Assembly (NCBI GenBank): GCA_015489175.1
Contig: WGAI01000012.1
Span: forward strand, 36,307-100,306
From: a candidate division WOR-3 bacterium
GTDB taxonomy: Bacteria > Hydrothermota > Hydrothermia > B15-G9
Direction: 5' to 3'
Length of the DNA: 64,000 bases
Below are positions 3,797 to 25,400 of this stretch, piece after piece. Numbering within the stretch: position 1 is the first letter of the stretch; each line of letters opens with the position of its first letter. The notes beneath the pieces were generated by a model. That model was given only the letters and a program-made list of their open reading frames with translations, was not told where the DNA came from and ran no database searches. The position numbers were made by a program, and so were the translations under genes.

Positions 3797-4252
3797 ATGT
3801 TGAAAGAGCTTTTGAAGAAAGAGCATTTGATCATGAATATGCAGGCGCGGCAGAAAGACGAAGCGCTCGAAGAGCTGGTCAAGGTTCTGAAATTCCCGCC
3901 AGACAAAGAACGCCTGCTCCTTGAAACGCTGAAGAAGCGCGAATCCATAGGTTCGACTGGAATTGGCAAAGGGATTGCCATTCCGCATGCGAGGAGCGTG
4001 GTGCTGGACAAAGTGTATCTTGTCGTAGGGCGTTCTAAGGAGGGCGTGGACTTCGATGCGCTTGACGGCAAGCCTGTGCACCTGTTTTTCATGCTTGCAG
4101 CTCCTCCTCAGGATCCGGGCACACAATACCTTATAGCGCTCGGTAAGATAGCGGCGCTTGCAAGAAAACTGGTCAAAAATCAAGACTATCTCAACATTGA
4201 TGATCCTGATGAGTTCATAGAGTATCTCGTAAAATTAGCTGAGGAAGAATAG
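3797..4252 (+). CDS. ptsN: PTS EIIA type-2 domain protein (PtsN / EIIA-Ntr-like regulator)
   Basis: ORF 3767..4252. An internal ATG at 3797 is preceded by an AAGGGAGG RBS. The IAIPHAR phospho-histidine motif is characteristic of fructose/nitrogen-type EIIA proteins. About 150 aa. Confidence 0.75.
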   Translation: MLKELLKKEHLIMNMQARQKDEALEELVKVLKFPPDKERLLLETLKKRESIGSTGIGKGIAIPHARSVVLDKVYLVVGRSKEGVDFDALDGKPVHLFFMLAAPPQDPGTQYLIALGKIAALARKLVKNQDYLNIDDPDEFIEYLVKLAEEE

Positions 4253-4254
4253 CC

Positions 4255-4647
4255 ATGATAAGCGGAACTCTGGAGATCCTCATAAAGCTCCAGGACCTTG
4301 AGCACATGCTCGAGGAGCTTAACTCCCCTGAATACCTTAACATCCTGAAAGAGTCATCCGGGCTTTCGGATGAGGAAGCACGGGAAAAGATTCAGAAATC
4401 GGTAGAATCTTTGAAAGAGGATATAAAAGGACTTAAAGAAACACTACCCAAGGATATAGTCAAAAAATACGACAGGCTAATAAAGCGTTATGGCAGAGCT
4501 GTGGTGCCTGTTGTAAACGAAACCTGCCTCAATTGCTTCTCTCATATCCCAACATCGTTTCTCACAAAATCAGGTGAATTGGTCGAGTGTCCCAACTGTG
4601 GGGCGTTTCTTTATCTGCCGATACCTGAGAAAGAAAAGAAAAGCTGA
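4255..4647 (+). CDS. C4-type zinc-ribbon domain protein (coiled coil plus CxxC...CxxC)
   Basis: 130 aa. A coiled-coil N-half is followed by CLNCFSHIP...CPNCGAFLY, which resembles the putative zinc-ribbon (zf-RING_7 / DUF164) family. It starts 3 nt after the ptsN-like stop. Confidence 0.6.
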   Translation: MISGTLEILIKLQDLEHMLEELNSPEYLNILKESSGLSDEEAREKIQKSVESLKEDIKGLKETLPKDIVKKYDRLIKRYGRAVVPVVNETCLNCFSHIPTSFLTKSGELVECPNCGAFLYLPIPEKEKKS

Positions 4648-4656
4648 TAATTTTCA

Positions 4657-4690
4657 GGCGGGGCGGCCGAAGGCCGCCCCGCCTTTTCTC
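4657..4690. terminator. bidirectional rho-independent terminator
   Basis: GGCGGGGCGGCC-GAAG-GCCGCCCCGCC hairpin flanked by TTTTCA on the left and TTTTCTC on the right. It sits between convergent genes (zinc-ribbon + / TonB receptor -). Confidence 0.85.
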
Positions 4691-6585
4691 TATCCACCTA
4701 TCACAAAGCCCACCGTGATCGTCCTTCCGGGCATCGGATAATAGGGTTCTTCCTCGTAGAGCGCATCGAACAGATTTTTGACTGAAATGAACCCTTTTAC
4801 TGGACCCCAGATGACCTGTTCTGTGTAAATGTTGGCGACTATGCACGGTGCGAGTATCTTTTCTGGCCAGAACCGCCTGCTGCGGTAGTAAACCGATCCT
4901 CTGATGAGTTGCGTTTTTGACGGCCGATATTCGGCTGAAAGGGTTATTTTGTGGTTGGCTATCCCCGGTAGTATCCTGTGCGTGGTCAAATCCTCTCCTA
5001 TCAGGTTTGTGTAAGAAAATGACAGGTCGAAATAGTTGCCCCGTTTGAACTTAACCGTCAGCTCCGAGCCCGCCGTGAAGGCATTGGCGATATTTCGGTA
5101 TATGGAATCCCTTGAAGGCCTATCGATCATGTCGTTTATGTCGTTGTAAAATCCGATCAGGCTGAGTTTGACAGACCTGTAATCGATCGAAATCCCGCCC
5201 TGAACGCGCGTCGCCTCCTCCGGTTTTAGATGTGGGTTGCCCGATTTTATTGAGAAGAGTTCATGCCCTGTGGGGAAGCGGCTGTTTCGGGAAAGATACA
5301 ACCATGTCTTTGCGAAACTGAGGGGTGAGACTGACACGCCGACCTGAGGGTTGAGTATGTGAGCCCATGCAACCATCGAATCGGTTTTGAAGAATGGAAC
5401 GGATAGGCCTGCTGAAACGATGAAGCTCTCGGTTTGCCTATCTATGTGGGCGACGAGGTTGGCGGTGTTCATCGTGTTCCTTCTCCATGCCGCATTGAGG
5501 TCAGGGTGCCGATTCATCTTATCGAGCCGATACTGGAGGCCGAACTTCAATGTTATGGAGTTCGACGGCGTGTATCTGGTCTCCCACACTGTGCCCCAAT
5601 CGCGCAGGTCATGCAAACTATTCCACCAAATGTCGTTCGGATCGAATTCGCGTGTCCGATAGCTTATCAGGTCGTTGACGAATTTATCGGCATAGAGCTT
5701 GCCCCTTACGCTCAGGTTCACGGTCGGCCTGAACTCTCCACTCAGATCCACAAAGTCGCGGTTCCAGTAGGGAAATCTCCAGAAAGAAGCGTCCATTTTC
5801 ATCGCAGGCGGCACTCCCTTGCTCGACCTGTAACTTCCAACCGACATCCCGACATGGAGCTGTGAGCCGTATCGATAACCCAATTTCAGCTGGATGTTTG
5901 TCCTCGAATAATCGCTGTTGTCTCGGAGCCCTCCATCCTCAAATCCGTTGGGCTCAAATGTGTCGGGCAGCGGAAAGCCCTTTGACGCGCTACTATAAAA
6001 GTTCAATGCGTAGTAAAGTCTGGCGAGGTTGGGCAATGTGAATGGTCTGCCGTTGTTGAGTTTAAAGTCGTAGGTGTTGCCGGAACCGTAATCGAACATT
6101 ATCCGCGTGTAGGGTTTATCGTCAGGTGCCTCTGTCACTATGTTGACTATACCGCCCATGCCGTTAACCGCAACAGTAGGCGCAATGTTCCCCTGAATTA
6201 CATCGATGCGGGAGACATTATCGGTCGTTATCGAGAGCAGATCGGCGCTCCCGTAATACGGATTGTTGACAGGACGGCCATCGACAAGGACGGCTATCCT
6301 TTTTGAGGTGAAACCTTGAATCGTCAGGGAGGCTTCATTTTTGAAGCCTACGGTGATGTCAACGCCGGGAACGAGCTTTACAGCCTCAGCCACAGTGCGC
6401 GCACCCTGTTTCTGAATGGATTTGAGATCGACTTTTTCGGGCGGTATGACCCATTTCGATACCCGTTTCGCGACAACGAACATCTCGCCGAGGAAGTAAG
6501 TCGGCATGGAATCCGTTGATGTCGTGTCACTTTTAACGGCGTGGAGGGGGAAGGCAAACAACAACAGAATTAGGAATTTTTTCAT
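4690..6585 (-). CDS. TonB-dependent outer-membrane receptor
   Basis: Signal peptide, plug domain (ARTVAEAVKLVPGVDI...LVDGRPVN...IDVIQG), and a long beta-barrel region. 631 aa. Confidence 0.85.
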   Translation of the reverse strand: MKKFLILLLFAFPLHAVKSDTTSTDSMPTYFLGEMFVVAKRVSKWVIPPEKVDLKSIQKQGARTVAEAVKLVPGVDITVGFKNEASLTIQGFTSKRIAVLVDGRPVNNPYYGSADLLSITTDNVSRIDVIQGNIAPTVAVNGMGGIVNIVTEAPDDKPYTRIMFDYGSGNTYDFKLNNGRPFTLPNLARLYYALNFYSSASKGFPLPDTFEPNGFEDGGLRDNSDYSRTNIQLKLGYRYGSQLHVGMSVGSYRSSKGVPPAMKMDASFWRFPYWNRDFVDLSGEFRPTVNLSVRGKLYADKFVNDLISYRTREFDPNDIWWNSLHDLRDWGTVWETRYTPSNSITLKFGLQYRLDKMNRHPDLNAAWRRNTMNTANLVAHIDRQTESFIVSAGLSVPFFKTDSMVAWAHILNPQVGVSVSPLSFAKTWLYLSRNSRFPTGHELFSIKSGNPHLKPEEATRVQGGISIDYRSVKLSLIGFYNDINDMIDRPSRDSIYRNIANAFTAGSELTVKFKRGNYFDLSFSYTNLIGEDLTTHRILPGIANHKITLSAEYRPSKTQLIRGSVYYRSRRFWPEKILAPCIVANIYTEQVIWGPVKGFISVKNLFDALYEEEPYYPMPGRTITVGFVIGG

Positions 6586-6638
6586 ATTTATCGCCTCTCA
6601 GAAAGGGAGCTGCCCCGAAAGTTCGGGGCAGCCACAAT

Positions 6639-7379
6639 TCAATCCGAAGGTTTGATTATGGCCTGAAGGAATTTTATTCGGTAAGCACTGCCCATGTCCG
6701 GAACAAACTTGACCTTTCTGGAAACCGTGTTCCAGTATCCGTTGAGCAGCTGCGCACCGGTCACATCCTTCGAATATCCATCAACTGCCCTCAATGTGTA
6801 AACGGCTGTTGTATCCAGCACAAACATTGTGTCAGACGCCTCAAGAACGCTTACGAGCGGCACGCAGAGCGTATCCTCAACCGTCACGGTGTCGCAATCG
6901 TCTATCGGAACCTGAACGCTATCCGTGTCGCCCACAACCCAGAACTGGCGAATCACTTTCAGCGTATCGACATCCCTGATGTTGTAACGACGAGATAGGC
7001 CGAGCGTGGTGTCCCAGAAGACATCCCTTGTTGAGACATCGATGTAGCCGAACTCAAGCTGATCCCATGTGTTGTCAGGCGAGCCCTTCTTGTGGGCGTA
7101 GAAACCGTCCGAGCCGATGAAACGATAGCCGTAAAGTTGATAGAGCTTGTTGCCGTTATCGTCGGTCTCAAGTGGCAGGTCGGATGTGGTCACGAACTCG
7201 GACGCCTGAATCGCCTCAATCCCCCCGACATTGATGTGTGGCAGCTCGCTAAAGTGTTTCTGCAGCTCGACATTCTCGAACTTAACGGTGATGAACTTAT
7301 CCTCCTCCTGTGGGGTCTGAGAACATGCAGTTAACCCCACTATTGCCGCAGCTGTTGCTATTACCAGCAGTCTCCTCAT
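6639..7379 (-). CDS. lipoprotein of unknown function, co-oriented upstream of the TonB receptor
   Basis: Lipobox LTAC after a signal peptide. 246 aa. No recognisable catalytic motifs. Possibly a TBDR-associated surface lipoprotein (DUF4249-like guess). Confidence 0.6.
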   Translation of the reverse strand: MRRLLVIATAAAIVGLTACSQTPQEEDKFITVKFENVELQKHFSELPHINVGGIEAIQASEFVTTSDLPLETDDNGNKLYQLYGYRFIGSDGFYAHKKGSPDNTWDQLEFGYIDVSTRDVFWDTTLGLSRRYNIRDVDTLKVIRQFWVVGDTDSVQVPIDDCDTVTVEDTLCVPLVSVLEASDTMFVLDTTAVYTLRAVDGYSKDVTGAQLLNGYWNTVSRKVKFVPDMGSAYRIKFLQAIIKPSD

Positions 7380-7511
7380 GGCTTTACCTCCTTTCCGAGC
7401 ACGGGAGGCCGACGGATTTCTCCATCGACCCTATCGGCCATGTGCCTTGGGCCACCGCCTTTAGGACACATGGCTCGGAGGCCCGGCATGTGTTTTGTGG
7501 GTGTCCCCAAA

Positions 7512-8489
7512 TCATACGACTCTTGCACGCATCAAGTCGTGTAAATGGATTATCCCGATCGGATGTTTATCCTCATCGACAACGATAAGTGCTGTAATAC
7601 CAAATTCTTCCATCTTCCGAGCCGCCTTGATAGCGAGCTCGTGTTTTTTGATTGTTTTGGGATTTCTTGTCATCACATCACGCGCCTTGAGCGAAAAGAT
7701 GTCTTTTTCCCGTTCAAGCAACCGTCTCAGATCACCGTCTGTGAAGACGCCGACAACCCGGTTTTCGCTGTCAACCACACTCGTTATACCTCTCTTGGAT
7801 GTCATTTCGAGTATGACCTCTTTCATGCTCGCATCTTCTGGCACCACAGGGACATACTTCTCGCCTGTCAGCATCATGTCCTCGACTTTGAGCCAAAACT
7901 TCTTGCCGATAGCGCCGCCGGGATGGAGTGCAGCGAAATCCTCGACCTTCAGTCCCTTCTCGTTCATCAAAACGATGGCCAGTGCATCGCCGAGCGCCAT
8001 CGTGGCTGTGGTCGAAGTGGTCGGAGCGATGTCGTAAGGGCAGGCTTCCCGTGTCACGCTCAGATCTATTACGATGTCGGCAAGTTGCGCGAGCTGGGAA
8101 CCCGGGCTTGCTGTGATGGCGATTATGGGCAGTCCCCACCGTTTGAGAAGCGGAATCAGCGCTCTGAACTCGTCCGATTCCCCGCTTTTGGATATGGCGA
8201 TTACTACATCGTCCTTTCCCACGATGCCGAGGTCACCGTGAAGCGACTCGGTCGGATGCAGGAAGATGGCAGGTGTACCCATGCTGGTCAGAGTTGCGGC
8301 TATCTTTTTGCCGACTATGCCGGATTTCCCAACTCCTGTGACGATCACCCTTCCGCTCGGCGAGTGCTCAAGGATAAGCTTGACTGCATCGACGAAGCTC
8401 TGCCCGAGCCCGTTCAATAGCTCTCTGAGGCCCCTTATCTCGGAACGAATTACATTTCTGCCAAGCTCTAAAATCTCTTCATCGCTCAT
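7512..8489 (-). CDS. kdsD: arabinose-5-phosphate isomerase (KdsD/KpsF family, SIS + tandem CBS)
   Basis: SIS-domain motifs (VIVTGVGKSG, AISKSGES) plus two C-terminal CBS domains. 325 aa, typical KpsF/GutQ length. Confidence 0.9.
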   Translation of the reverse strand: MSDEEILELGRNVIRSEIRGLRELLNGLGQSFVDAVKLILEHSPSGRVIVTGVGKSGIVGKKIAATLTSMGTPAIFLHPTESLHGDLGIVGKDDVVIAISKSGESDEFRALIPLLKRWGLPIIAITASPGSQLAQLADIVIDLSVTREACPYDIAPTTSTTATMALGDALAIVLMNEKGLKVEDFAALHPGGAIGKKFWLKVEDMMLTGEKYVPVVPEDASMKEVILEMTSKRGITSVVDSENRVVGVFTDGDLRRLLEREKDIFSLKARDVMTRNPKTIKKHELAIKAARKMEEFGITALIVVDEDKHPIGIIHLHDLMRARVV

Positions 8490-9040
8490 CTTCTCAATCC
8501 TACGGTTTTAAGTTTATCGTAAATCGGGCCTGAAGGCGTCAGAGTGCTCTTGTAGATCACGATTTCCCTGATCGTAAACGGAGGCAGCGACTCATTTTTA
8601 AGTCCGAGCTGTGAGAACCTGACTTTGTGGCCGTATCTGCGCGTCCTCGCTATCGTCAGATGTGCTTGAAACGGTCGTTTTTCGCGCTTGAATCCTATTT
8701 TTGATAGAGCAATGTCGATCTCGTTAGCGATACTGGAAAGCACATCAGCTCCCCTGTCGATGCCCAGCCACAGCACACGAATCGCTCCGCCGGAATCGAA
8801 GGATCCGGGCGCCCCGATCTGAAGCTCAAATGGTCGGTGGTTTGATGCAACTTCCCTGACAACTTTCTCAACTTCATGCAGCCGTTTCTCCTCGATCTCA
8901 CCTAAAAATTTCAATGTGATGTGGAGGTTGATCGGCTCCACCCATTTCAGATCGGGATATTTAATCCTTGCTGGCTTTATGGAAGATGCAATTCTCTTTT
9001 TATGGCTTTCCGGCAGGTCAACTGCGATAAAAGTTCTCAT
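8486..9040 (-). CDS. thpR: RNA 2',3'-cyclic phosphodiesterase ThpR (2H phosphoesterase, LigT-like)
   Basis: Two HxT/S motifs (HITLKFLG and HLTIAR) at the expected spacing. 184 aa. Confidence 0.85.
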   Translation of the reverse strand: MRTFIAVDLPESHKKRIASSIKPARIKYPDLKWVEPINLHITLKFLGEIEEKRLHEVEKVVREVASNHRPFELQIGAPGSFDSGGAIRVLWLGIDRGADVLSSIANEIDIALSKIGFKREKRPFQAHLTIARTRRYGHKVRFSQLGLKNESLPPFTIREIVIYKSTLTPSGPIYDKLKTVGLRR

Positions 9041-9297
9041 GGCGCTGAGATTTTAACTGAAAGAAAAGCCCTTTTCAATTTGGCGCACTGCGCATCGTTA
9101 TGGCTTTTAAATTCAGTTGGTTATGATGAAATCCTTATCATAGCCATGAAATGCGGCGTCGGACTTCGAGATAGGTTGAGAGATTAAGATAATCTTTTAT
9201 GTGGCATCCGCTGAGCGACGAATTGTCTCTGCGCCAAGTGATTGCATAACATGGCCTAACACATTAAAATTCAAGGCCAAACGAGGGAGAGAGTGTC

Positions 9298-11901
9298 ATG
9301 GCCGACAGAGCAGCCAAAAAAGCGGAAGAATATCCAGCTCACGAAATTGAGCCTAAATGGCGTGAATGGTGGGAGAAGATCGGGCTATACAAAGCGCCGC
9401 GAGTTCCTGGCAAGAAATACTATGTGCTTGAGATGTTTCCGTATCCATCGGGCTCATCGCTACACATGGGACATCTGAAAAACTACTTTATCGGCGATGT
9501 GGTTGCTCGCGTGAAACTTATGGAGGGTTACGATGTCCTGCATCCGATGGGATGGGACGCATTCGGGTTGCCTGCCGAGAACGCAGCCATAAAGACCGGC
9601 GTTCACCCCAAGGTCTCGGTCGAAAACAACATCAAAAACTTCAAAGAGACCCTGAAAATTGCCGGGATTAGCTATGACTGGGATCGTGAATTGGCGACAT
9701 GCGATCCCGATTATTATCGCTGGACACAGTGGATTTTCCTTAAACTTTATGAGAAAGGACTTGCTTACAGGGCAGACGCCTATGTGAATTACTGCCCGAA
9801 CTGCAAAACGGTTCTTGCAAACGAGCAGGTTATAGACGGAAAGTGTGAGCGGTGCCACACCCCGGTCATCAAGAAGAAACTAACGCAGTGGTTTTTCAAG
9901 ATAACGGATTATGCTGACAGGCTTTTGGAAGATCTGAAAAAGCTTGAAGGCAAATGGCCTGAGCTCGTCATCAAGCAGCAGGAAAACTGGATAGGCAAAT
10001 CTTATGGCACCACGATCGTGTTCAAACTTGAGGACGGCACTGATTTTCCCGTGTTTACAACCCGTGCGGATACGGTTTTCGGCGTGACATTTATGACCAT
10101 CGCGCCAGAACATGACCTCGTTGAAAAATTGATCGAAGGTTCGCCTAACAAGGATGAAATCCAGCATTATGTCCAGCATGCGCTTCTCAAGACCGAAGTT
10201 GAAAGGACAAGCGCTGAGCGGGAAAAAACAGGCGTTTTCACCGGCAAGTATGCGATTCATCCGTTCACGGGCGAGAGGATTCCGATCTGGGTCGGAGATT
10301 ATGTGCTCGCCGCCTACGGAACAGGCATCGTGATGGGCGTTCCGGCACACGATCAGCGCGATTTTGAGTTCGCAAAGAAATACGGGCTCGACATAAAGGT
10401 CGTGATAAAACCCGTCGATGGACCGGAACCAGATCCGAAAACCATGACCGAGGCGTTCGAGGACTACGGCATTATGGTCAATTCCGGAGAATTCACTGGC
10501 ATGACCTCGGAAGAAGGCATCAAAGCAATTCAGAGAGCGCTTGAGGAGAAGGGACTGGGCGGAAAAACCGTCACTTACCGCATCCGCGACTGGCTCATCT
10601 CAAGGCAGAGGTATTGGGGCACACCAATTCCGGTTGTGCATTGCCCCAAATGCGGAGTTGTGCCCGTGCCGGAGGAGCAGTTGCCTGTCAAACTGCCTGA
10701 AAACATCAAAGACTTCAAACCCAAAGGCCGTTCACCGCTTGAAGATGTGCCTGAATTCATCAACACGACATGCCCCAAATGTGGCGGGCCGGCCAGAAGG
10801 GATCCCGACACGATGGACACTTTCGTCGATTCCTCATGGTATTTCCTGCGGTTTATCGATCCCAAAAACGACAAAGAGATATTCGAGAAAGAGGTTGAAG
10901 ATAAGTGGATGCCGGTCGATCAATACATCGGTGGCATAGAGCATGCCACGAAGCACTTAATTTACGCGAGGTTTATCCAGAAAGTCCTCTACGACATGGG
11001 CTACACATCACACGATGAGCCTTTTGAATACCTTTTCACGCAGGGACTTGTTCTCAAAAACTTCTACTGGTGTCCTAAATGTCTTGCAGTTGTGCCTGAC
11101 GACGAGGTCTATGAACGGGACGGTAAGTTTTACCACAGACACGGGGACGAGGAACATGAGGTGGAACAGCGGCTTGAGATGATGTCCAAGTCGAGGGGCA
11201 ATATCGTGCCGGCCAAACCGTTTATCGAGGAATACGGCTCCGATGTGGCGAGGATAACGATACTTTTTGCGGCGCCCGCCGAGAAAAGCATGGAATGGAG
11301 CGATGCAGGTGTTGAGGGAGCGAGAAGGTTCATCAACCGCGTGTGGCGCCTCTACATGAAGCACATAGACGATCTATCGACTGAGCCGCCGAAAGTTGAC
11401 CCCGAGAAGCTATCGAAGGATGAGAAAGAGCTCTATGTAGCGCTCCAGAAGACTATCTTTGAGGTTCGCAGGGATTCCAACGAGTTTCACTTCAACACTG
11501 CGATTGCCCGAATTATGGAGCTTGTTAACGAGCTTTACGGTTTCCAGAACACGCAATCAGATGTGTTCAAACTTGCGCTGCACCAGCTTGTGTTGCTTCT
11601 TGCGCCGTTCACGCCGCACATGGCGGAGGAGCTGTGGCATCGCATGGGCAACGAGGATTCCATCTTCAGGGCAAGGTTCCCTCAATACGACGAGCGGTAT
11701 CTTGTCTCTGACGAGGTGGAGATACCGGTTCAGGTCAATGGGCGTGTGCGTGGCAGGATCAAAGTCGCAAGAGATGCCGATGAGGAGACCGTGCTTGAAG
11801 CTGCTAAGGCGGAACCGAATGTCGTAAGGCACATCAAGGACAGGGAGATCAGAAAGGTCATCTACATCAAAGGCAAGCTTCTGAACATAGTTGTGAAGTG
11901 A
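9298..11901 (+). CDS. leuS: leucine--tRNA ligase
   Basis: HMGH motif (HMGHLKNY), KMSKS motif (KMSKSRGN), editing-domain insertion. 867 aa. Confidence 0.95.
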   Translation: MADRAAKKAEEYPAHEIEPKWREWWEKIGLYKAPRVPGKKYYVLEMFPYPSGSSLHMGHLKNYFIGDVVARVKLMEGYDVLHPMGWDAFGLPAENAAIKTGVHPKVSVENNIKNFKETLKIAGISYDWDRELATCDPDYYRWTQWIFLKLYEKGLAYRADAYVNYCPNCKTVLANEQVIDGKCERCHTPVIKKKLTQWFFKITDYADRLLEDLKKLEGKWPELVIKQQENWIGKSYGTTIVFKLEDGTDFPVFTTRADTVFGVTFMTIAPEHDLVEKLIEGSPNKDEIQHYVQHALLKTEVERTSAEREKTGVFTGKYAIHPFTGERIPIWVGDYVLAAYGTGIVMGVPAHDQRDFEFAKKYGLDIKVVIKPVDGPEPDPKTMTEAFEDYGIMVNSGEFTGMTSEEGIKAIQRALEEKGLGGKTVTYRIRDWLISRQRYWGTPIPVVHCPKCGVVPVPEEQLPVKLPENIKDFKPKGRSPLEDVPEFINTTCPKCGGPARRDPDTMDTFVDSSWYFLRFIDPKNDKEIFEKEVEDKWMPVDQYIGGIEHATKHLIYARFIQKVLYDMGYTSHDEPFEYLFTQGLVLKNFYWCPKCLAVVPDDEVYERDGKFYHRHGDEEHEVEQRLEMMSKSRGNIVPAKPFIEEYGSDVARITILFAAPAEKSMEWSDAGVEGARRFINRVWRLYMKHIDDLSTEPPKVDPEKLSKDEKELYVALQKTIFEVRRDSNEFHFNTAIARIMELVNELYGFQNTQSDVFKLALHQLVLLLAPFTPHMAEELWHRMGNEDSIFRARFPQYDERYLVSDEVEIPVQVNGRVRGRIKVARDADEETVLEAAKAEPNVVRHIKDREIRKVIYIKGKLLNIVVK

Positions 11902-11932
11902 GTTAGCTTTTGATAACTCGTTCGTATTTCAA

Positions 11933-11958
11933 GGCGCCCCGAAGGGGCGCCTTTTAAA
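11933..11958 (+). terminator. rho-independent terminator after leuS
   Basis: GGCGCCCC-GAAG-GGGCGCC hairpin followed by TTTTAAAAT. Confidence 0.8.
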
Positions 11959-12388
11959 ATCTGGACGGCTTGAGGATGCACAAGTCCATAAGGTTAAGCA
12001 CCTTCAGCAAATACTCCTCCCCAATTGTCCGAAGTGTGGAAAGCGATTGGATGTATGTTGGATCAAGAGGGGGAGGGGAGTGGATGATGATGGCCGATTG
12101 CAATGACCTTTGGCAGCTAAATTGAATGTGCTGAAGATATCCAACAATCGCTGTGTTTATTCGCTGTCTTTACCATTTACCAGATTCCTTATCTCATCTT
12201 TTATCAGGTTTTCCCTCAAAGTTGTAAATCGATCAAATTTTTCCTTTATGGATTAAGCGGGGAATTTAGTTAAAATGGGCTATGTAAGACCTTGAGCCTA
12301 AAAATATTCACTGTCCTAAACCTATTCAGCCGCTTTGATGTAATTTCATGCCCCAAAATTTTATAATCCATGCTGTTGAAACAGGAGG

Positions 12389-12724
12389 ATGGCAATGAAA
12401 CGATTGTGGATAGCCATAATTGTCGGTTTTCTGACTGGCCTGCTGTGTGTTTGGGGTGCATCCCAGAGGGGAATCTGGGACACATGGATGCTCGTATCGG
12501 CAGTTGCTAACCGCACGCTTATCGGTTTTGCGATCGGCATGTCCAGGTTCAAGATGCACTGGGCTCTTCACGGCGCGCTAATAGGCGCAATCTTCGGGCT
12601 GCCGCTTAGCCTTGCGGCGCTCCAGAGCGGTTTTGCATCGTTTCTGGCATTCGAGCTGGCGTCCATAGTGTATGGATTTGTCGTGGAACTGGTCACCGCC
12701 GTGATTTTCAAAGCAAAACCATGA
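12389..12724 (+). CDS. small integral membrane protein (3-4 TM), unknown function
   Basis: 111-aa hydrophobic ORF with an AGGAGG-like RBS (acaggaggatggcaATG). It follows a ~430-nt non-coding leader. Confidence 0.55.
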   Translation: MAMKRLWIAIIVGFLTGLLCVWGASQRGIWDTWMLVSAVANRTLIGFAIGMSRFKMHWALHGALIGAIFGLPLSLAALQSGFASFLAFELASIVYGFVVELVTAVIFKAKP

Positions 12725-12746
12725 TCCCTGCCGCAATTCAGAATTG

Positions 12747-12775
12747 AAAAAGGGGAGGCAGCGCGCCTCCCCAAT
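12747..12775. terminator. bidirectional terminator between convergent genes
   Basis: GGGGAGGC-AGCGC-GCCTCCCC hairpin. An A-tract on the left (T-tract for the minus-strand 978-aa gene) and AATCGTTT on the right. Confidence 0.7.
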
Positions 12776-12799
12776 CGTTTAACCCGTCATGATAGCCGT

Positions 12800-15736
12800 T
12801 CACCGATTAATCTTAACTATTCGCCTCACGATAGTGCGTTTACCATCGATCGAGGCCCTCACCAGATAAACGCCTGAAGCTACTCTGTGGCCGCTCATGT
12901 CAGTCCCGTCCCACCTGAACTTGTGGATGCCTGCCTTAAATCTGCCCTGTCCAAGTTCGTTTATCAGCCTGCCCGATACATCAAAGATCGAAATCTCGAG
13001 ATCCGATGGCCTGTCGAGGGATAGCATTATCTCGGTGGCGTCAGCAGATGGATTGGGCGCAACCATAATGTCCGGTTTGCCCATCGACGGGTGTGTCTCC
13101 TCGATGCCCTGCGCCATACCGCTGACATGCAGGTAGTAGATGTTGCCGTCGGTTGGGACATTAGGGCCGCCGCTCGTGATCATCCAAACATCGCCCGGTG
13201 CCGGCGGCACGGTCATGTTGTTTCGCAAGTTAAACCAGTAATACTGGCCTGAAAGGTAGAAGCAGCGATGGACTGACGGATCCAGATAGCGGCTCGGTGC
13301 GTTCGGAAGCCCGATGAACCAGTTGTCGCCCGGCGTTGAGTCGAACGGCACCTCCACACCGTTAGTCATATCAACGACGCGGAGCGTGGTCTGTCCTGTC
13401 GCCGAGTCCTGAACCCAGTAAATCATGTAGTCAGAGCCTCTGAAGGCCCAGCGCAGATTGGCGTTCGGCGGCGCCGTGCCCATGCTGTCCATCCCCGCAA
13501 TCTGGAGTGTCCCATCAAATCCGCTGACATTGCGGACGATCCGAAATCCTGTGATCCTGAACAGGGCACCGTCGATCATTGATGTGAACTCGAAGGTTAT
13601 GCCGCCGATAACGGGCGAGTAGTCCTTTATCATGTGGCCGTCCAGTCCCACTGAGAGATGACCCTCAGCGAGCAGATCCCTCGTTGCGCTGTCTATGATG
13701 GTGTAAGTGTATGTCGGCTCGGGTTGAATTCGGTTAAACCTTATCTCGTATGTCCTTGCCGTGAGCGATTCTGGATAGTAAACGAGCGGGTTAATCGATA
13801 CGGTGTTACATCCGCCATGAGCGTGGACAAGTCCGTCTATCACCTGATGATCGTTCAGCACCGTAATCATTGAATAGGACGAATCTACGGCGAATGTGTC
13901 CGCATCGTGCGCCTCAACGAACAGGCGATACGATGTGTTGTGCACCAGAGCTGAGTTGAAAGTGTAACTGCCTGTGTTTTCCAGCCCTCGTGCGAGGTAA
14001 AATTTGTCGCCTGTCATCGCATGGACGAGGTAGATGTCGATCGAAAGCGGATCGCCGTCTGCATCGGCCGCCCACCATCTGACCTCAGCGTCTCCTGAGA
14101 GGGTGCCCCGTTGCGGGCTCAGCAACAGCAGGTCGGGCACGCCGTTGCCCGGATTGTTGACGGTAAAGACGGTGTCAGACACATCCTCGCCAACCGCAAG
14201 TGTATCATAGACTGAAACCCTTATGCGATAACGGGTTCCATCGGGGACATCGTTCGTATGCCAGATGTATGAACCTGCATCTGGTATGCCCTGAGCTATC
14301 GGAACCCATGTCTCGCCGTTGTCCCGCGAGTAGAAGAGATCGACCAACATGTCGGCTCCGAACGCACTGGAATCCTGCCATGTGATCTCCACATCGCCGT
14401 AAACCGTCTCTCCGCCATTCGGATAATCGACATGTGCCCAGTTAGTCACGAAGTTGATATCGTAGAGCGTTTGGGCGAGGTCGGAATTTGCCTGAAGGTC
14501 GGCCAGATCCTCGCCCATGATGACTGCTATCACTATCTTTGCGGTGTCGCCGGGCGCAAGGTCGAACGGGCCTGTGAACTGGAGGAACCTGATGTCGGTG
14601 GGGGTAGATATGCTGTCGAACGGATGATATTCTCCTGTCGTGTAGTTGTAGCCTGCCGCAAGCTGATAGGCCTGATCGTCGTTATCTGGATCCGGCTCGC
14701 CCGGCCCGCCGACGCCGGGGTTGTGTATGATCTTGAAAGCAGTTAGGCCAAGCTGGTTGCCGGTCGTATCGGTCGGACTTTCAAGGAAGTCGAAGCCCAC
14801 ATATCCGGGCGGATTTGACCAGCCCGGCACGCTCCCGTCCGAATCGAAGGCATAACCCAGATTGCGGTCAGTGTCGAAGCCCGCGAGGTCGTCCTGATAA
14901 TCGCCTGCCCCGACATCCGCATCGCAAACCACGCCCATGTAAATGTGTTCGAGCGTGTCGTCCGTCGCATTCACCACATAGTAGTTCAGGAACAGGAAGT
15001 CCTGATAAAGGGTGTAGTTCCAGCAATATCCGACCTGTATCACCTTTATGCCGAGCGGATGGTCAGCCCTTGACGAGTCCATGTCGTTGCCTATCGCATA
15101 GCTATCCTCGGTGGAGATCACCACAGGGGCACCTGTTGCGTCGCGCACCGGCCATAGCGCAGTGTCAGACGGCTCGTTTGAGAACAACACACGCTCGGTG
15201 GTGTCCGTGTAGCCGGGTTCGTTCGGGAGGTCGCCGGGAACAAGCTCAGTGCCTCCGTTCGATGGGTTGTAGCCCATGTCAAGTGCAGCGTAGTAGGCTA
15301 TCATCTCCTCACCTGCGTTGTGCGTCACGGCCGTCGTGCTGGCAAAGCCGCGGATACACGAAAGCAATGTGTCGCCTGAAATCCCGTGATAATGCACAAA
15401 CTCATTGCCAATCTTCAGGATACCTGTTGAATCGAGGCCGTCGATCGATGTCACACGGATTGCGTTCGCATCCGCTGTAATGTCCTCGGCAAGGGAGGTG
15501 CTAACTCCCTTCGGTTTCAATGCGCCGACCCATATCCCGGCGCCGAAGATGTAGGTCTGTCCTGTGCCTTTCGGCCATTCTGCTGCGTTCTGGTAGCCAA
15601 AACGGCCGAAGTTCGTTATGGCGAGCCTGAGCAGCCCATCATCATGCCATCTCGTTGACCAGATGGCGAACAGGTTGCTCGCACTCAAAAACATCATGAA
15701 AACTACAACACCTGAAATTTTGATCTTGCGAATCAT
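12800..15736 (-). CDS. large secreted protein with T9SS type-A C-terminal sorting domain (cargo of unknown function)
   Basis: Signal peptide (MIRKIKISGVVVFMMFLSASNLFA). 978 aa. The C-terminus ...SGVYLVRASIDGKRTIVRRIVKINR matches the conserved T9SS CTD (SGVYxxR...K-hydrophobic end). Asp/Gly-rich Ca-binding-like stretches. Confidence 0.7.
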   Translation of the reverse strand: MIRKIKISGVVVFMMFLSASNLFAIWSTRWHDDGLLRLAITNFGRFGYQNAAEWPKGTGQTYIFGAGIWVGALKPKGVSTSLAEDITADANAIRVTSIDGLDSTGILKIGNEFVHYHGISGDTLLSCIRGFASTTAVTHNAGEEMIAYYAALDMGYNPSNGGTELVPGDLPNEPGYTDTTERVLFSNEPSDTALWPVRDATGAPVVISTEDSYAIGNDMDSSRADHPLGIKVIQVGYCWNYTLYQDFLFLNYYVVNATDDTLEHIYMGVVCDADVGAGDYQDDLAGFDTDRNLGYAFDSDGSVPGWSNPPGYVGFDFLESPTDTTGNQLGLTAFKIIHNPGVGGPGEPDPDNDDQAYQLAAGYNYTTGEYHPFDSISTPTDIRFLQFTGPFDLAPGDTAKIVIAVIMGEDLADLQANSDLAQTLYDINFVTNWAHVDYPNGGETVYGDVEITWQDSSAFGADMLVDLFYSRDNGETWVPIAQGIPDAGSYIWHTNDVPDGTRYRIRVSVYDTLAVGEDVSDTVFTVNNPGNGVPDLLLLSPQRGTLSGDAEVRWWAADADGDPLSIDIYLVHAMTGDKFYLARGLENTGSYTFNSALVHNTSYRLFVEAHDADTFAVDSSYSMITVLNDHQVIDGLVHAHGGCNTVSINPLVYYPESLTARTYEIRFNRIQPEPTYTYTIIDSATRDLLAEGHLSVGLDGHMIKDYSPVIGGITFEFTSMIDGALFRITGFRIVRNVSGFDGTLQIAGMDSMGTAPPNANLRWAFRGSDYMIYWVQDSATGQTTLRVVDMTNGVEVPFDSTPGDNWFIGLPNAPSRYLDPSVHRCFYLSGQYYWFNLRNNMTVPPAPGDVWMITSGGPNVPTDGNIYYLHVSGMAQGIEETHPSMGKPDIMVAPNPSADATEIMLSLDRPSDLEISIFDVSGRLINELGQGRFKAGIHKFRWDGTDMSGHRVASGVYLVRASIDGKRTIVRRIVKINR

Positions 15737-15740
15737 GGTC

Positions 15741-17948
15741 TCACCTCACAATCATGAATTTTTTGGTGACCTGCGAATTGTCCGATGCGTTGACGAGCCT
15801 CGCGAAATAAACCCCTGAAGAGAAACCATTTACCGGCAATGTTGTGACATTGTTACCTCTGTTAAGCCGCAATGTGTTGATTACCCTACCCGTGATGTCC
15901 AGAATGTTGAGCCGGTAACCTTCGTCTGGAGCAAATGCCGTCAACTTGACGGAGCTGTTTGAAAGTGCTACATCAAGTCGGGGCAGTTTTTGGGCTGCGA
16001 TCGGCTCGTCCTCCTCGACAGACGGCAGCAGCCTGTAAAGCACGATATGGGCCCATGTGTATTTCGTGGTGGTCATCCCATCCTCGTTCGAGATCAGCAG
16101 TTTCCACCGTCCTTCTGGCATGGTCAGGTAGGCCTGTTCGGTTATCGGGATGTCCTCCGCCATCGATGCCGCCGTGAACCTGTGCCCCATCTGGTATTCA
16201 TCAAAATTAGAGCTATCCATGACATAGTAGTCGAGCCTGATCTGATCCTCATCGATGAGGTTGCCGTATGTGTGATAAAACCCTGTATCCCCTGCATTTC
16301 TGCGGCATCTGACATAGCCGTGTTCGACGCCAATGCCCCCATCAGTCGTTATCTCAACCATGTAAGCTGTCTCATCGCTGCTTGTTGTGTCAGCCCACGG
16401 CGATGGGGTGAAGTTCGGAATGGTCACCGTGACATAGTATTGAGCGCCGGTCTGTGAGTTCTCGATTATCTGCACGATCGTGTTGGGATCCTCAGGGTAG
16501 TCTCCGATCGGCGAATTGACATGGATGTAGAAGTTGCGCAGCTCGCCTATCTCGAAGTTCGCAATTCCGTTCTGATCGGTGAACAGCCATGAGCTCACAC
16601 TGTAACCGCCATACCAGCCCTCGGTGTAGAGCAACACGCGTGCGCCCGGCACAGGCTTGTTTCGCCAATCGACAACCTGCACATGGAGCGAACAGACATC
16701 CGAGTAGATATGCGTCATCGTGGTGGTGTAGCCGTCAGACCTCCAGTCGAGGACAGATGAGATGTGTTTTCCGCCGCCGTAATCGTCGTCCATGGCTATT
16801 CCCGGCGCATTGATGCTGGTTGGCCCGCCATACCAGCCTACCTGATACGGATACCAGTTGCCGTCGAAGTAGAAAGCGGTGAACACATGGTCTTCTGCCA
16901 GCGTGAAGTGCGAGGTTATCGGAATAAGTGCGGCTCTCGCGCCCGCCACAAGGGCATCCTGAAGCTCGCCGCAGTTACCGTTGTGCTCATGGATTATCAC
17001 ATTTGGCTGAATTGGGCGGTCACCCGTCGCAGTCGTTGGGATATTGTAGCCGACCCAGTTGCCGACGATGTCGAGCGCATAACTCGTTGAGTCAAACGGG
17101 CGAAATCTCGGCAAATTCACAGGCGTGTCGGAAACGACCCAGAGCGTTTTCACGCCGCGCATAACATCCGCAAGCCTCGGATAGCCCGAATCCGCATGGT
17201 AAAACAGGTAGTCGCGCCAAAACCTGTTGTAAACATACCCGTCCATCCTCGGCATCTCGTCCGACAGTTCAGGATGGACTATGTAGTAGTAATAGATCCA
17301 GTAAGGGATGGTCGTGTAAGCGGTGTCGCCGTTGGCGTCGATGTAGCGATACCGCGCCGTTGTGAAGTAGTCCTCGCCTGTCGTGTCCTCGACCAGCTCA
17401 ACATAATCGAGCGAATCCGCATTCCGATAGATGTATTCAGCGTTGACCTCGACAAGTTGAGGGTCAAACACGGAATCCATCAGTATCTCAGGCGATAGAG
17501 CCGCAACTACGAAGGCTATCTCGTCACGATACCGGTCGTCCGTTGGGTTGATTATCATCTGAGCGTAAATATCTTGAAACTCAGGTGTTAGCCTGTGCAT
17601 GTTGTCGGCGAGCAGTGGTCTGAGCCAGTCAGGGGCTATATCTATGGCCTGAAGTGCATTGGTTGTTAGGCCGGTATCGGGATAATCCGTCAGCGTTAGG
17701 CCTGTGGAATCGATGTCGAAGATGATGCGTTCGCCGGGCCACATCAGCAAGAACAGGTCTTTTCGATCCACAACCTGCCATTGCGTGTCTGGCGGCATCG
17801 TCTGAACGGACGGCAGGTGCCCAAAACCCTCAGCACCTTCAAACGGTTGGACTATGTGCCTGATAATTCTGGGGTTGTCCAGATGCGGAGGGGACATCGT
17901 CGTGATGCCCTGTCCAACGACAAGGGTTACAATTACCAGCCAGTTCAT
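15741..17948 (-). CDS. transglutaminase-like cysteine-protease-fold protein with T9SS C-terminal domain
   Basis: Signal peptide. The transglutaminase core signature GNCGELQDALVAGARAALIPI...DHVFTAFYFDGNWYPY matches the GxC...H...D pattern of PF01841. C-terminal ...SGVYFARLVNASDNSQVTKKFMIVR is a T9SS CTD. Confidence 0.65.
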   Translation of the reverse strand: MNWLVIVTLVVGQGITTMSPPHLDNPRIIRHIVQPFEGAEGFGHLPSVQTMPPDTQWQVVDRKDLFLLMWPGERIIFDIDSTGLTLTDYPDTGLTTNALQAIDIAPDWLRPLLADNMHRLTPEFQDIYAQMIINPTDDRYRDEIAFVVAALSPEILMDSVFDPQLVEVNAEYIYRNADSLDYVELVEDTTGEDYFTTARYRYIDANGDTAYTTIPYWIYYYYIVHPELSDEMPRMDGYVYNRFWRDYLFYHADSGYPRLADVMRGVKTLWVVSDTPVNLPRFRPFDSTSYALDIVGNWVGYNIPTTATGDRPIQPNVIIHEHNGNCGELQDALVAGARAALIPITSHFTLAEDHVFTAFYFDGNWYPYQVGWYGGPTSINAPGIAMDDDYGGGKHISSVLDWRSDGYTTTMTHIYSDVCSLHVQVVDWRNKPVPGARVLLYTEGWYGGYSVSSWLFTDQNGIANFEIGELRNFYIHVNSPIGDYPEDPNTIVQIIENSQTGAQYYVTVTIPNFTPSPWADTTSSDETAYMVEITTDGGIGVEHGYVRCRRNAGDTGFYHTYGNLIDEDQIRLDYYVMDSSNFDEYQMGHRFTAASMAEDIPITEQAYLTMPEGRWKLLISNEDGMTTTKYTWAHIVLYRLLPSVEEDEPIAAQKLPRLDVALSNSSVKLTAFAPDEGYRLNILDITGRVINTLRLNRGNNVTTLPVNGFSSGVYFARLVNASDNSQVTKKFMIVR

Positions 17949-22442: not shown

Positions 22443-25400
22443 ATGACAGCGTTGATTTATGCATTGATCGCTTTAAACATGCGGCTTTCAATTGATTTAG
22501 GTGAAAATTTTTCGATTTTCCGTTCCGACAGCGGCGAAATCATCCAGATGGACGGCGCTGTTCCGTTGCTGGAGTATGGCGAGCCGGAACTCCCGATAAA
22601 GCCGATCTTCGTCTCGATACCTCAGGGCTACTCCATAGGTAGCGTTGAGGTTTTAAATGCGGACAGCATTAAGGTAGATGTGGATTGGGATGACCTTTTG
22701 CGCAACATGGCAGAGGAATTTTCCAATGATCACGGCAAAAATTCGCTTTCCAGCCGTTATAGCTCAAACATCGTGGAGCTTCTAAATACATGGACATCGT
22801 TTGGTTTCAGGATTGGGGTGTTAAATGTTTATCCAGTGAGGCATAACGAGAGCACAGGGGAGACCTTTCTGGTTAATCACATAGATGTTGAGCTAAACCT
22901 CGTTCCGACGAGTTACGGGACCCCCACCGTCATGAGGCGCAGCGATTTTGAGTATGTTAAGCGCGTTCTGGGCACGCTTGTCGTCAACCCTTATGACCTT
23001 GATGTGAACTCGCCGTCCCTGAGGCTTGTCGATAAGGTCGATGTAACCTCGAACATCTACCCCTATGTGATAATCACCAGGGACGAGCTTGTGCCCTATT
23101 TCGATGAGCTTACGGCCATTTTCGCCATGGAAGGGTATCCGAGCATCGTCAGATCGATTTCATGGATAGAATCGCATTACACCGGAAGTGACAGACTTGA
23201 GAGAGTCCGTAACTTTATACGCGACATGTATCTACATCATGGCACGGTGTGGGTTCTACTTGGCGCCGACAGCCCGTTCCTCCCCTCGAGGGTGGTCAAC
23301 ATTCCCATAGGCACGGGCTACTACGACGATGTCCCGACAGACCTTTATTTTTCTTGCCTTGACGGCACATGGGACAGAAACGGCAACGGCCATTATGCTG
23401 AGCTTGAAGATAGTGTTGATCTCATGCCAGATGTGTTCGTCGGGCGCGTTACTTTTCAGGATTCAGCTGAGATCGCCAATGTCGTGCGCAAATACCTTGC
23501 CTATGTTTCGCCATCCGACACGAGCTATTCGGCAACCTCGATGTTCGTTGGTGCTGACCTGTTTTCGAGCGGAGATGGTGCTTCACTCTGCGAAGAATTG
23601 GCCTCCTATGTTCCTTCGAACTTCAACATCATCCGCATGTATGAGACGAATTCACACGATAACTCGTTGTCCGATTTCATGGATGCGATCAACAACGGCG
23701 TCGGACTGGTCACAATGGAGGTTCACGGGTGGTACACATTTATCAATCTCAACTCCACGCCTCGCATTTCGTTCACTTACAACAACGCCGACACACTTGC
23801 GAACATAGACAGGCCAGCGGTTTTCAACATCGTATCCTGTGAGACGGGTGGATTTGACCGCGAATGCATCGTCGAGCACATGATGCGTGCGCCGGGCGGC
23901 GCAATCGCGGTCCTATCGAGCACGAGAAACAACTATCCGTATGTGGTTCAGCCATACAACATTATGTTCTTCCAGAGACTTTACCAGAACCATATAAGGG
24001 AAATTGCGGCACTCGACCTGTTGTCCAGAAGCGTTTTTTTGGCTTACTCAGGCGCTTACAACCACTCGAGATATGCGCTGTTTTCATACAACCTCATGGG
24101 AATGCCACAGCTAAGGCTCTGGAGCAGCGTGCCGTCGAGGACGCATTTCGTGAATGTGCCTCCGTTCGTCTCAACAGGGCTTCAGGACATAACTGTGACA
24201 CTTGTAGATAACAACGGTAATCCGTTGCCCGGAAAGGTGGTATCGGTTTACAAAACGGGCGAAACCTACGACATCGACACCACCGACGCCAGCGGAAGGG
24301 CAAGCTTCACGATAAGCCCATTGACCCCCGGCCCGCTCTACATCGGCAGCTTCGATCCGACCATCACAGCCGTCGTCGAGACCGTGGTCGTCACATCAGG
24401 CACAGGTGTCCCGTTTCTCGCATCTTACGATGTCACATATCCGTCGGTTGTCTCCGCAGGTGACAGCGTTGAACTCAGCCTTTCCATCGGCAATGACGGT
24501 GTTGCCAGCTTCTCCAACATCGTGGTGCAGGCTGAAGATATCGATACGGCCATCGACCTGCTGGTAGATTCCCTGTTGTTGGATTCCTTGCCGAGGATGG
24601 ACACGGTTGATGTAGAGGAACCGCTTGTTCTGCGTGTGCACGATGGGGTGACTGATGGCTATGTGGCCTCAATTCCAGTTATCTTCAAGCGAGGCAGCGA
24701 GATCATGAGCGTTGACACGATAGGCCTTGAGGTAGCAGCCCCGCAAATCACATTGATACGCAAGAGGATCGAGCATCATGTTGGCAGCCAAATTTACAAA
24801 CTGTGGCCCGTTATCAGCAACTACGGCAATGGGATAGCCAGACATGTTTCGGTGCGGCTTCTGGGGGCTGACAACATCGCACTTATCGATTCCAGCGCCA
24901 AAGTGGGCGACATCGAACCGTTCTCCGAAGCCATGCCCGATAACCCGCTGAGATTTATGCTATACGGCCCGACGCCCGATCTGACGCTCACGATCAGGGT
25001 GCAGGCGGACAACATCATGGGTTATCAGGATTTCCATGTTACTTTCTCGGAGATTGCGAGGCCTGAAAGCGTCGATGTTTCCACAAACATCTCGGGCATA
25101 AAACTCAGATGGCACCCTGTGGACGACGGAGGGCTGCGCGGCTACATCGTCTATCGTGCGCTCAACAGCCACAAGTTCAGCCCGATAACGAGCTATCCGC
25201 TTGATCACCCGGAATTTGTCGATGTTAATGTCGAATACGGGCACACTTACCGCTACTTTGTGGTGGCAGTTGATACATCTGGAACCGAGAGTCCCACATC
25301 TGACACCGTTGAAGGGTTTTATTATCAAGAGCTTAACGGATGGCCGGTTGTTGTCATGGGTCCCTCTGCGCCGCTGATCGCTGATATCGACCCGTATCCG

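Follow-up and report, generated by a model that had tools for sequence, protein, structure and literature searches.

This report concerns a pair of neighbouring genes, B and A, on the minus strand of a 64,000-nucleotide stretch of DNA from a candidate division WOR-3 bacterium (assembly GCA_015489175.1, contig WGAI01000012.1; this whole stretch is called the window below, and its own numbering is used throughout). Gene B (15741..17948) codes for a protein of 735 amino acids (aa) with a transglutaminase/PNGase-fold core, and gene A (12800..15736) for an all-beta multidomain protein of 978 aa. Both products are predicted to be cargo of a type IX secretion system (T9SS). The genes were delimited from their open reading frames (ORFs), AlphaFold2 (AF2) models and homologs, which for A extend over the full length, and their coordinates and lengths agree exactly with those of an earlier note on this DNA, made from the letters alone. 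Compared with their homologs, neither protein is truncated (100% query coverage). B is the upstream gene: its TGA stop codon is separated by 4 nucleotides (nt) from the ATG of A, and a GAGG ribosome-binding site sits inside the last codons of B. Beyond the pair, 28 nt past the stop codon of A, there is a terminator-like hairpin (12752..12772, minus strand) with a 9-bp stem, seven of whose pairs are GC, and a T tract. As a consensus match only, in a region where such sites are, in total, no more numerous than in shuffles, this hairpin likely marks the end of the transcription unit.

Both C-termini had been read in the earlier note as type-A T9SS sorting domains (C-terminal domains, CTDs), and profile searches bear this out. 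TIGR04183 matches A with 35.8 bits and B with 30.5 bits (cutoff 23), spanning aa 892-975 and aa 674-733, respectively, that is, the extreme C-termini, where the tail motifs quoted in that note are also found (ASGVYLVRASIDGKRTIVRRIVKINR in A and SSGVYFARLVNASDNSQVTKKFMIVR in B). The Pfam model PF18962 exceeds its cutoff of 27 bits in B (30.4 bits) and remains under it in A (24.5 bits), while FlgD_ig matches the CTD of A with 43.7 bits and the family profile of A aligns to the PorU CTD (6za2) with E=5.5e-5. Both CTDs have an immunoglobulin (Ig)-like beta-sandwich structure that resembles solved CTDs. On the minus strand, the domain of A, an FlgD_ig-like variant, occupies aa 889-978 (12803..13072), and that of B aa 655-735 (15744..15986). 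Signal peptides had also been proposed for both proteins, a claim that holds well for A and less firmly for B. The N-terminus of A, MIRKIKISGVVVFMMFLSASNLFA (aa 1-24; 15665..15736, minus strand), is by inspection a classical Sec signal peptide, consisting of MIRKIK, a hydrophobic core and LFA|IW, and this n/h/c layout is kept in the family. By contrast, the corresponding segment of B, MNWLVIVTLVVGQGITTMSP (aa 1-20; 17889..17948, minus strand), is hydrophobic and modelled as a low-confidence helix, and it is atypical in lacking a basic n-region. Homologs show classical signal peptides at the same place, and a role of this segment as a putative Sec signal peptide is plausible.

Regarding the cellular context, the window encodes LpxD (TIGR01853, 317 bits, cutoff 242.5), a TolC-family protein and a TonB-dependent receptor and, thus, the host is considered a diderm with lipid A/lipopolysaccharide (LPS). 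A locally built CTD hidden Markov model (HMM) detected exactly three CTD-bearing ORFs in the 64 kb: A, B and a C25 peptidase that is described further below. The cargo of Porphyromonas gingivalis (e.g., RgpB, PorZ and PorU) offers the closest known counterpart, as it shares the Ig-like CTD of about 80 aa and a diderm LPS host, and the CTDs of PorU and PorZ are those to which the domains of A and B have been related in sequence or structure. The differences are that our host belongs to WOR-3 rather than Bacteroidota and that the CTD of A scores better with FlgD_ig than with Por_Secre_tail. Among related genomes, the WOR-3 metagenome-assembled genome (MAG) UBA3079 carries both a B-A pair (L013 in our locus numbering) and a PorV/PorQ-family gene (L085; NF033709, 193 bits, cutoff 90), the latter being one component in a related genome and not the core machinery.

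The two genes had been described as adjacent, which is correct; beyond that, they form a strictly conserved pair. The synteny sample comprised 80 reference-genome loci encoding A relatives, together with further fetched contigs, in which A orthologs were defined by at least 41% identity and remote A-like genes by 24-37% identity. B was found directly upstream and on the same strand in every A-ortholog locus with enough upstream sequence (25/25), and the eight A-ortholog loci without B all begin less than 650 nt from a contig end. By contrast, B stands beside none of the remote A-like genes (0/51 loci). Many A and B homologs share contigs, and the MAGs bearing the pair are labelled WOR-3, Stahlbacteria, TA06, Hydrothermota, Zixibacteria and Fermentibacteria. 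Spacing within the pair is tight in other WOR-3 loci whose flanks otherwise differ: L001 shows an overlap of B and A, and L002 a gap of 9 nt. Of the reference-genome loci, the nearest (L011, 97% identity) is from a candidate division WOR-3 MAG (T10_metabat1_scaf2bin.031, JALVZN01), and those that come next (79% and 54%) are from Candidatus Hydrothermota MAGs.

Two MAGs illustrate the surroundings in which these genes may occur. In WOR-3 MAG GCA_030643605.1 (L001, 127-15258), the B-A pair comes last among five successive CTD-protein genes, all on one strand, in the order InhA-like protein (927 aa), S8 peptidase with FG-GAP repeats (1196 aa), a protein of 1095 aa, B and A; this cargo cluster is much denser than that of the window. 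In a Fermentibacterota MAG (L004, 87-3541, and L005, 2558-6012), a B homolog with 34% identity is followed, 2 nt past its stop codon, by the gene for an unrelated beta-propeller protein of 411 aa. B-family enzymes may, then, recruit different downstream partners depending on the lineage.

The AF2 model of B has a mean predicted local distance difference test (pLDDT) score of 91.5 and a predicted template modelling (pTM) score of 0.82, and its family has at least 150 homologs in WOR-3, TA06, Stahlbacteria and their relatives. After the N-terminal segment, there is a helical/beta region (aa 57-290; 17079..17780, minus strand, as are all domains of both proteins) with confidently modelled secondary structure and 48 family-conserved positions, for which neither Pfam nor NCBIfam returned a match. 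It is followed by the transglutaminase/PNGase-like core (aa 291-415; 16704..17078), an Ig/macroglobulin-like domain (aa 416-512; 16413..16703) and a beta-sandwich domain delimited from AF2 strands (aa 513-645; 16014..16412), which is poorly conserved, with a mean identity of 22% to relatives outside the subclade discussed below.

The transglutaminase-like core, already proposed in the earlier note, has been confirmed. Its motifs NGNCGELQD (with Cys326, 16971-16973) and EDH (with His354, 16887-16889) are present, the model displays the papain-like transglutaminase core fold, and Transglut_core (PF01841) recognises the isolated core with 24.3 bits, above the cutoff of 23, although the whole protein reaches only 20.5 bits. 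PF01841 matches 24 of 25 family cores, with a best E of 3.9e-9. In an alignment of 80 sequences, Cys326 is kept in 80/80 and His354 in 79/80, and both align to the Cys and His of PNGase. The third member of the Cys-His-Asp triad implied in that note did not stand: the column aligned to the PNGase Asp holds Asp in 66/80 sequences and Gly371 (16836-16838) in the window protein and in its three closest relatives (P0121-P0123), and inspection of the sequence of B reveals no acidic residue near it. These four proteins also share W356F, E358A and Y386M, at positions otherwise conserved at 91-99%. The sub-threshold Pfam score of B is explained by these changes together with G371, and the suggestion of a “cysteine protease or cross-linker” becomes less secure because of the incomplete triad and the flanking substitutions.

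Within this four-member subclade, identity amounts to 92-98% in the core, 63-95% in the second beta-sandwich and 48-90% in the CTD. As the core is the best-conserved region of B, its remodelled site is fixed and constrained rather than decaying, and strong purifying selection acts on the altered core. A Cys-His dyad enzyme of altered specificity, or a conserved binding site that is not catalytic, fits this pattern better than a dying gene would.

With regard to known families, the LapG/BTLCP assignment was rejected, as no such model in Pfam or NCBIfam matched B at E<=1. The core resembles that of PNGase in sequence, but B is not considered a member of the PNGase family, because it has no CxxC. 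The cores of that family are defined by a Zn-binding CxxC...CxxC site, whereas inspection of B found three cysteines (C326, C419 and C548) and none of these pairs. B further differs from Png1/NGLY1 in being predicted to be extracellular, with a T9SS CTD, while Png1/NGLY1 are cytosolic, in the change of the triad Asp to Gly and in its flanking domains. It is also because of the CTD that a surface location, rather than a periplasmic one, is expected for B. Transglutaminase-like proteins whose function is not understood are widespread in the Fibrobacterota-Chlorobiota-Bacteroidota (FCB) group, for instance 3isr (a “transglutaminase-like putative cysteine protease” from Cytophaga hutchinsonii) and 3e8v (a fragment of a “possible transglutaminase-family protein” from Bacteroides), but the identity of B to these two proteins is only 15-18%, and to our knowledge neither of them has an A-type partner or an assigned function.

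The AF2 model of A (pLDDT 87.7), a protein of five modules, is all-beta except for the signal peptide and three short helices, and its low pTM (0.56) is expected from a layout resembling beads on a string. The N-terminal domain (aa 25-431; 14444..15664) probably forms a galactose-mutarotase-like beta super-sandwich, in which Asp-rich loops are conserved and into which a small beta module is inserted (aa 79-142; 15311-15502). Two tandem Ig-like domains follow (aa 433-527 and 535-627; 13856..14440, from AF2 strands), the first of which contains the Asp-box SRDNGETW, and then a third beta domain (aa 628-875; 13112..13855) that is characterised by a family-conserved cluster of His and Cys residues (H630, H638 and C643). 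The Ig-like region is annotated as PF10342 (Kre9_KNH) in the precomputed entries of many A homologs, gives a weak BNR match at aa 468-477 and matches, as a profile, the bacterial Ig domain 9kvu in the PDB. Apart from its Ig and CTD regions, A showed no match to Pfam, NCBIfam or PDB sequences, even when the full family profile was compared with the PDB, and the third domain, in particular, has no family or PDB sequence match. At this level of comparison, therefore, the body of A is without a sequence-detectable solved relative.

The earlier note had assigned no catalytic motif to A and left its identity open. No catalytic domain is detectable, indeed, but the protein can now be resolved into super-sandwich and Ig-type domains. 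The top structural matches of the model are the non-catalytic N-domains of enzymes that also carry an (alpha/alpha)6 barrel, which A lacks, and an assignment as a GH15-, GH65- or GH94-type enzyme was consequently rejected, given that neither an (alpha/alpha)6 domain in the model nor a match to any GH family HMM was found. With the galactose-mutarotase-like domains of GH15 glucoamylase/glucodextranase, GH65/GH94 (N-domains), aldose 1-epimerase and YidC (P1), A shares the super-sandwich only, with identities of 4-13%, no barrel and no family match at the sequence level. The small inserted module is found elsewhere in 12 tandem copies in P0259 (5123 aa) and in six in P0362 (1091 aa), and is therefore an independent repeat for which Pfam has no model.

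The conservation of A is considerable, with 294 positions conserved at 80% or more in its family. The Asp-rich stretches noted earlier are present and largely family-conserved (CDADVGAGDYQDDLAGFDTDRNLGYAFDSDGS and GEPDPDNDDQ). C271, D272, D274, D283, D349 and D353 vary hardly or not at all, D316 and E319 also belong to this loop set, and it is plausible that these loops are Ca2+ sites. In the sublineage of the window, an otherwise 100% conserved His661 is replaced by Arg (13752-13754), and two cysteines conserved at 90% or more, C387 in the N-domain (14574-14576) and C862 in the third domain (13149-13151), have both been lost, a joint loss which suggests that, in the other family members, they form an inter-domain disulfide. 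These changes parallel those of the B active site in the same lineage.

The N-terminal domain of A defines a sizeable family. An exhaustive search with aa 25-432 retrieved 3113 cluster representatives at E<=1e-3 (633 at E<=1e-10), and the conserved core corresponds to aa 152-431. In other architectures, this domain is accompanied by Laminin_G_3 (a ConA-like lectin domain), He_PIG, LVIVD, cohesin, dockerin, BNR or fn3, always together with a Por_Secre_tail/FlgD_ig tail, and none of these proteins joins it to a recognisable catalytic domain.

The remote A-like genes occur in a different context. Directly upstream of them there is frequently a SusC-like TonB-dependent transporter (CarboxypepD_reg, Plug and barrel) and, directly downstream, a PorV/PorQ-family barrel (NF033709, 158-219 bits, cutoff 90). 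By tblastn, the transporter stands beside 32/51 of these loci and both neighbours are found in 28/51, whereas no B-A locus, that of the window included, has either neighbour. The cassette extends over many candidate phyla of the FCB type, with loci in Zixibacteria, KSB1, Calditrichota, Ignavibacteria, WOR-3, TA06, Stahlbacteria and others (L035, L045-L048, L050-L058, L060, L061, L063, L064, L066, L067, L069-L073, L078-L083 and L085). L058 serves as an example, with genes at 3929-6862, 6875-10051, 10071-11126 and 11126-13069. A homolog of clostripain-family C11 peptidases follows in L046, L058, L080 and L082, and an amidohydrolase takes its place in one locus; the C11 homolog of L046, the one scanned in full, gives a weak CTD match below the cutoff.

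The A-like protein of these cassettes (~1000 aa) occupies the position that SusD has in Bacteroidota. Four of them (L058:6875-10051, L046:6908-10081, L069:6962-10021 and L085:7001-9979) display the full architecture of A with a divergent, CTD-like C-terminal region of ~90 aa. This tail (WDxL...GIYLY...GKFxII[KRY]) scores only 20-40 bits with the local CTD HMM, and L058, the one paralog scanned with Pfam and NCBIfam, gave no match there. Possibly, the tail serves as a variant signal for sorting or anchoring that fits the PorV/PorQ-type barrel encoded next to it. In established T9SS biology, PorQ tethers PorZ and, by analogy, A-like proteins may be tethered by a dedicated barrel of this type. 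Because the paralogs sit between a SusC-like transporter and a PorV/PorQ barrel, a role of A-type proteins as surface substrate-capture partners, working with an importer and a secreted cysteine peptidase, is suggested, and the layout fits a surface-tethered substrate-binding protein. The likeness to the SusC/SusD, PorQ-PorZ and PorV-PorU pairs is, however, positional only: the A-like proteins are neither SusD homologs nor lipoproteins, and A itself has no TonB-dependent transporter or PorV/Q gene nearby.

Taken together, the explanation that we prefer, with a confidence that falls a little short of even, is that B and A are a co-transcribed and co-inherited pair of T9SS cargo proteins in which A captures the substrate of the thiol enzyme B. 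In this model, both proteins would pass through Sec and then through the T9SS to be displayed on the outer membrane, where A would bind a polymeric substrate (a polymer, glycan or glycoprotein) and B would act as a hydrolase or amidase, using its thiol to cleave or modify an amide or isopeptide bond. The pair would thus be a small extracellular unit for harvesting or remodelling extracellular polymers, a parallel to which may be seen in the cassettes of A-like paralogs with a SusC-like transporter, a PorV/PorQ barrel and a C11 cysteine peptidase. As far as A is concerned, the predicted super-sandwich fold is typical of carbohydrate-binding or ancillary domains, and the protein looks non-catalytic.

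Several observations weigh against this explanation. The T9SS core genes were sought within the 64-kb window and none was found, the remaining genes being mostly housekeeping ones. The triad Asp of B is absent (G371) and two residues typical of the superfamily next to the His are replaced (W356F and E358A), so that its chemistry may be altered or lost. The invariant polar residues and the His/Cys cluster of A could equally mark an unrecognised active site. Additionally, distant B homologs (36% identity or less) stand alone or precede a different protein, which indicates that B does not need A; to judge from these gene neighbourhoods, the dependence within the pair is one-sided.

This asymmetry is also what would be expected if A were the substrate of B rather than its binding partner. 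In such a model, B would cleave A for its maturation or release, or would cross-link it into a surface layer by isopeptide bonds. A precedent exists in LapG, a transglutaminase-like protease that releases the adhesin LapA. The strict, one-directional adjacency (every A ortholog has B, while B exists without A) and the tight gene spacing agree with this idea, and the transglutaminase fold is known to allow both protease and cross-linking chemistry. Nevertheless, A-like paralogs of the same architecture function without any B, no LapG/BTLCP-type family match was obtained for B, no conserved candidate cleavage site or Gln/Lys acceptor motif has been identified, and the triad of the window protein is incomplete. 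We regard an enzyme-substrate relationship as unlikely, although it is the alternative that survives best.

The incomplete triad could instead mean that B is a pseudoenzyme in the sublineage of the window and that A and B are structural or adhesive components of the surface, B being comparable to protein 4.2 among animal transglutaminases. This is somewhat less likely again, since Cys326, His354 and the GNCGE motif are strictly kept and no part of B is better conserved in the subclade than the core (92-98%), which would be unusual for a site freed from catalytic constraint. In papain-like and transglutaminase-like folds, moreover, a Cys-His dyad can be enough.

We consider it just as improbable that A is the enzyme, with B as an accessory. 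A would then belong to an undescribed family (e.g., of lyases, epimerases or metal-dependent hydrolases) and act through its super-sandwich or through the His/Cys cluster of the third domain. Its invariant polar residues (D283, D381, N256, Q422, H31, R291, R383, H630, H638 and C643) are unusually many for a binding module, and the super-sandwich carries out catalysis in aldose 1-epimerases and supplies part of the active site in some of the polysaccharide lyases among the structural matches. On the other hand, no family, PDB-sequence or catalytic-domain match points to an enzyme, the best structural matches are non-catalytic N-domains whose accompanying (alpha/alpha)6 barrel A lacks, and all of the co-occurring domains are of binding or scaffold types.

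Beyond the binder-plus-enzyme explanation that we prefer, there is a more speculative extension of it, to which we grant slightly less probability than to the enzymatic role of A. Bacteria would have, in the B family, a surface-displayed counterpart to the PNGase-type amidases of eukaryotes, and A, with its lectin-like super-sandwich, would take the role of the PAW domain, the carbohydrate-binding domain of animal PNGase, in an extracellular module that deamidates or de-glycosylates glycoproteins or glycopeptides. The chemistry would have been retuned in the sublineage of the window (a Cys-His dyad with D371G, W356F and E358A), and A-type proteins in general would be an equivalent of SusD outside Bacteroidota, exported by the T9SS as capture partners of either SusC-like transporters or secreted cysteine enzymes. 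Finally, an accidental juxtaposition of unrelated cargo genes in a cargo-rich region, with no functional coupling, is very improbable: CTD cargo genes often cluster (five in a row in L001 and three within 14 kb in the window), but B precedes A in 25/25 informative loci from several candidate phyla with differing flanks, and the C25 gene is not conserved nearby.

Concerning the novelty of these observations, our literature searches found no paper on the B-A pair, on the T9SS in WOR-3, on T9SS-exported transglutaminase-like proteins of this kind or on the cassette of TonB-dependent transporter, A-like protein and PorV/Q barrel. We consider modestly new the strictly conserved enzyme-partner operon, the active site that is remodelled yet constrained, and the fold and context proposed for an unannotated domain family. 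Members of WOR-3, Stahlbacteria, TA06 and related groups have not been cultured, and next to nothing is known of their surface biology. Two “hypothetical T9SS proteins” become a defined and conserved module of two genes, for which a hypothesis of enzyme and binder can be tested, and a sizeable domain family that Pfam does not model (about 3,100 representative clusters) gains a fold and a genomic logic, as a partner of SusC-like transporters, PorV/PorQ barrels and cysteine peptidases. Current understanding is not overturned. Peptidase-like and carbohydrate-binding domains are common in T9SS cargo; among annotated type-A cargo, cysteine peptidases account for 3.7% and carbohydrate-binding proteins for 8.1% (PMC11205867).

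The third CTD-bearing ORF of the window (22443-26858, plus strand) codes for a C25 (gingipain-family) peptidase of 1471 aa with FG-GAP beta-propeller repeats. It is not PorU, as NF033707 reaches 32 bits against a cutoff of 420, and its C-terminal half resembles the model of a “T9SS-dependent M6-like inactivated metalloprotease” with 93 bits, below the cutoff. The earlier note had seen in this gene and the pair a local concentration of T9SS cargo. There are indeed three CTD-bearing ORFs in the window, but their proximity is a coincidence of the stretch chosen: the C25 gene lies on the other strand, separated from the pair by housekeeping genes for an aldehyde dehydrogenase, LpxD and PBP4, and no homolog of its catalytic domain was detectable near the B-A pair in the loci examined elsewhere (0/27). 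On these grounds, the idea that the C25 peptidase works together with the pair was rejected.

Other genes of the window deserve a brief mention. A canonical TgpA-type transglutaminase (52563-54605, minus strand), with TgpA_N, Transglut_core (83.7 bits) and DUF4129 and without a CTD, has an architecture unrelated to that of B; a comparison with the B-family profile, for which a single-sequence template was too weak, yielded nothing useful. Beside it, two ORFs (50529-51980 and 51965-52699) have no family match, and the same is true in Pfam and NCBIfam for an ORF of 912 aa (56089-58827, plus strand). A multi-beta-propeller (WD40-like) protein of 1138 aa (42629-46045, minus strand) gave no match with the local CTD HMM. 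Lastly, a STAND-type protein of 1506 aa (31613-36133, plus strand), in which an AAA_16/NACHT-like ATPase is flanked by many TPR repeats, is encoded next to a proton-pumping pyrophosphatase and an amidohydrolase.

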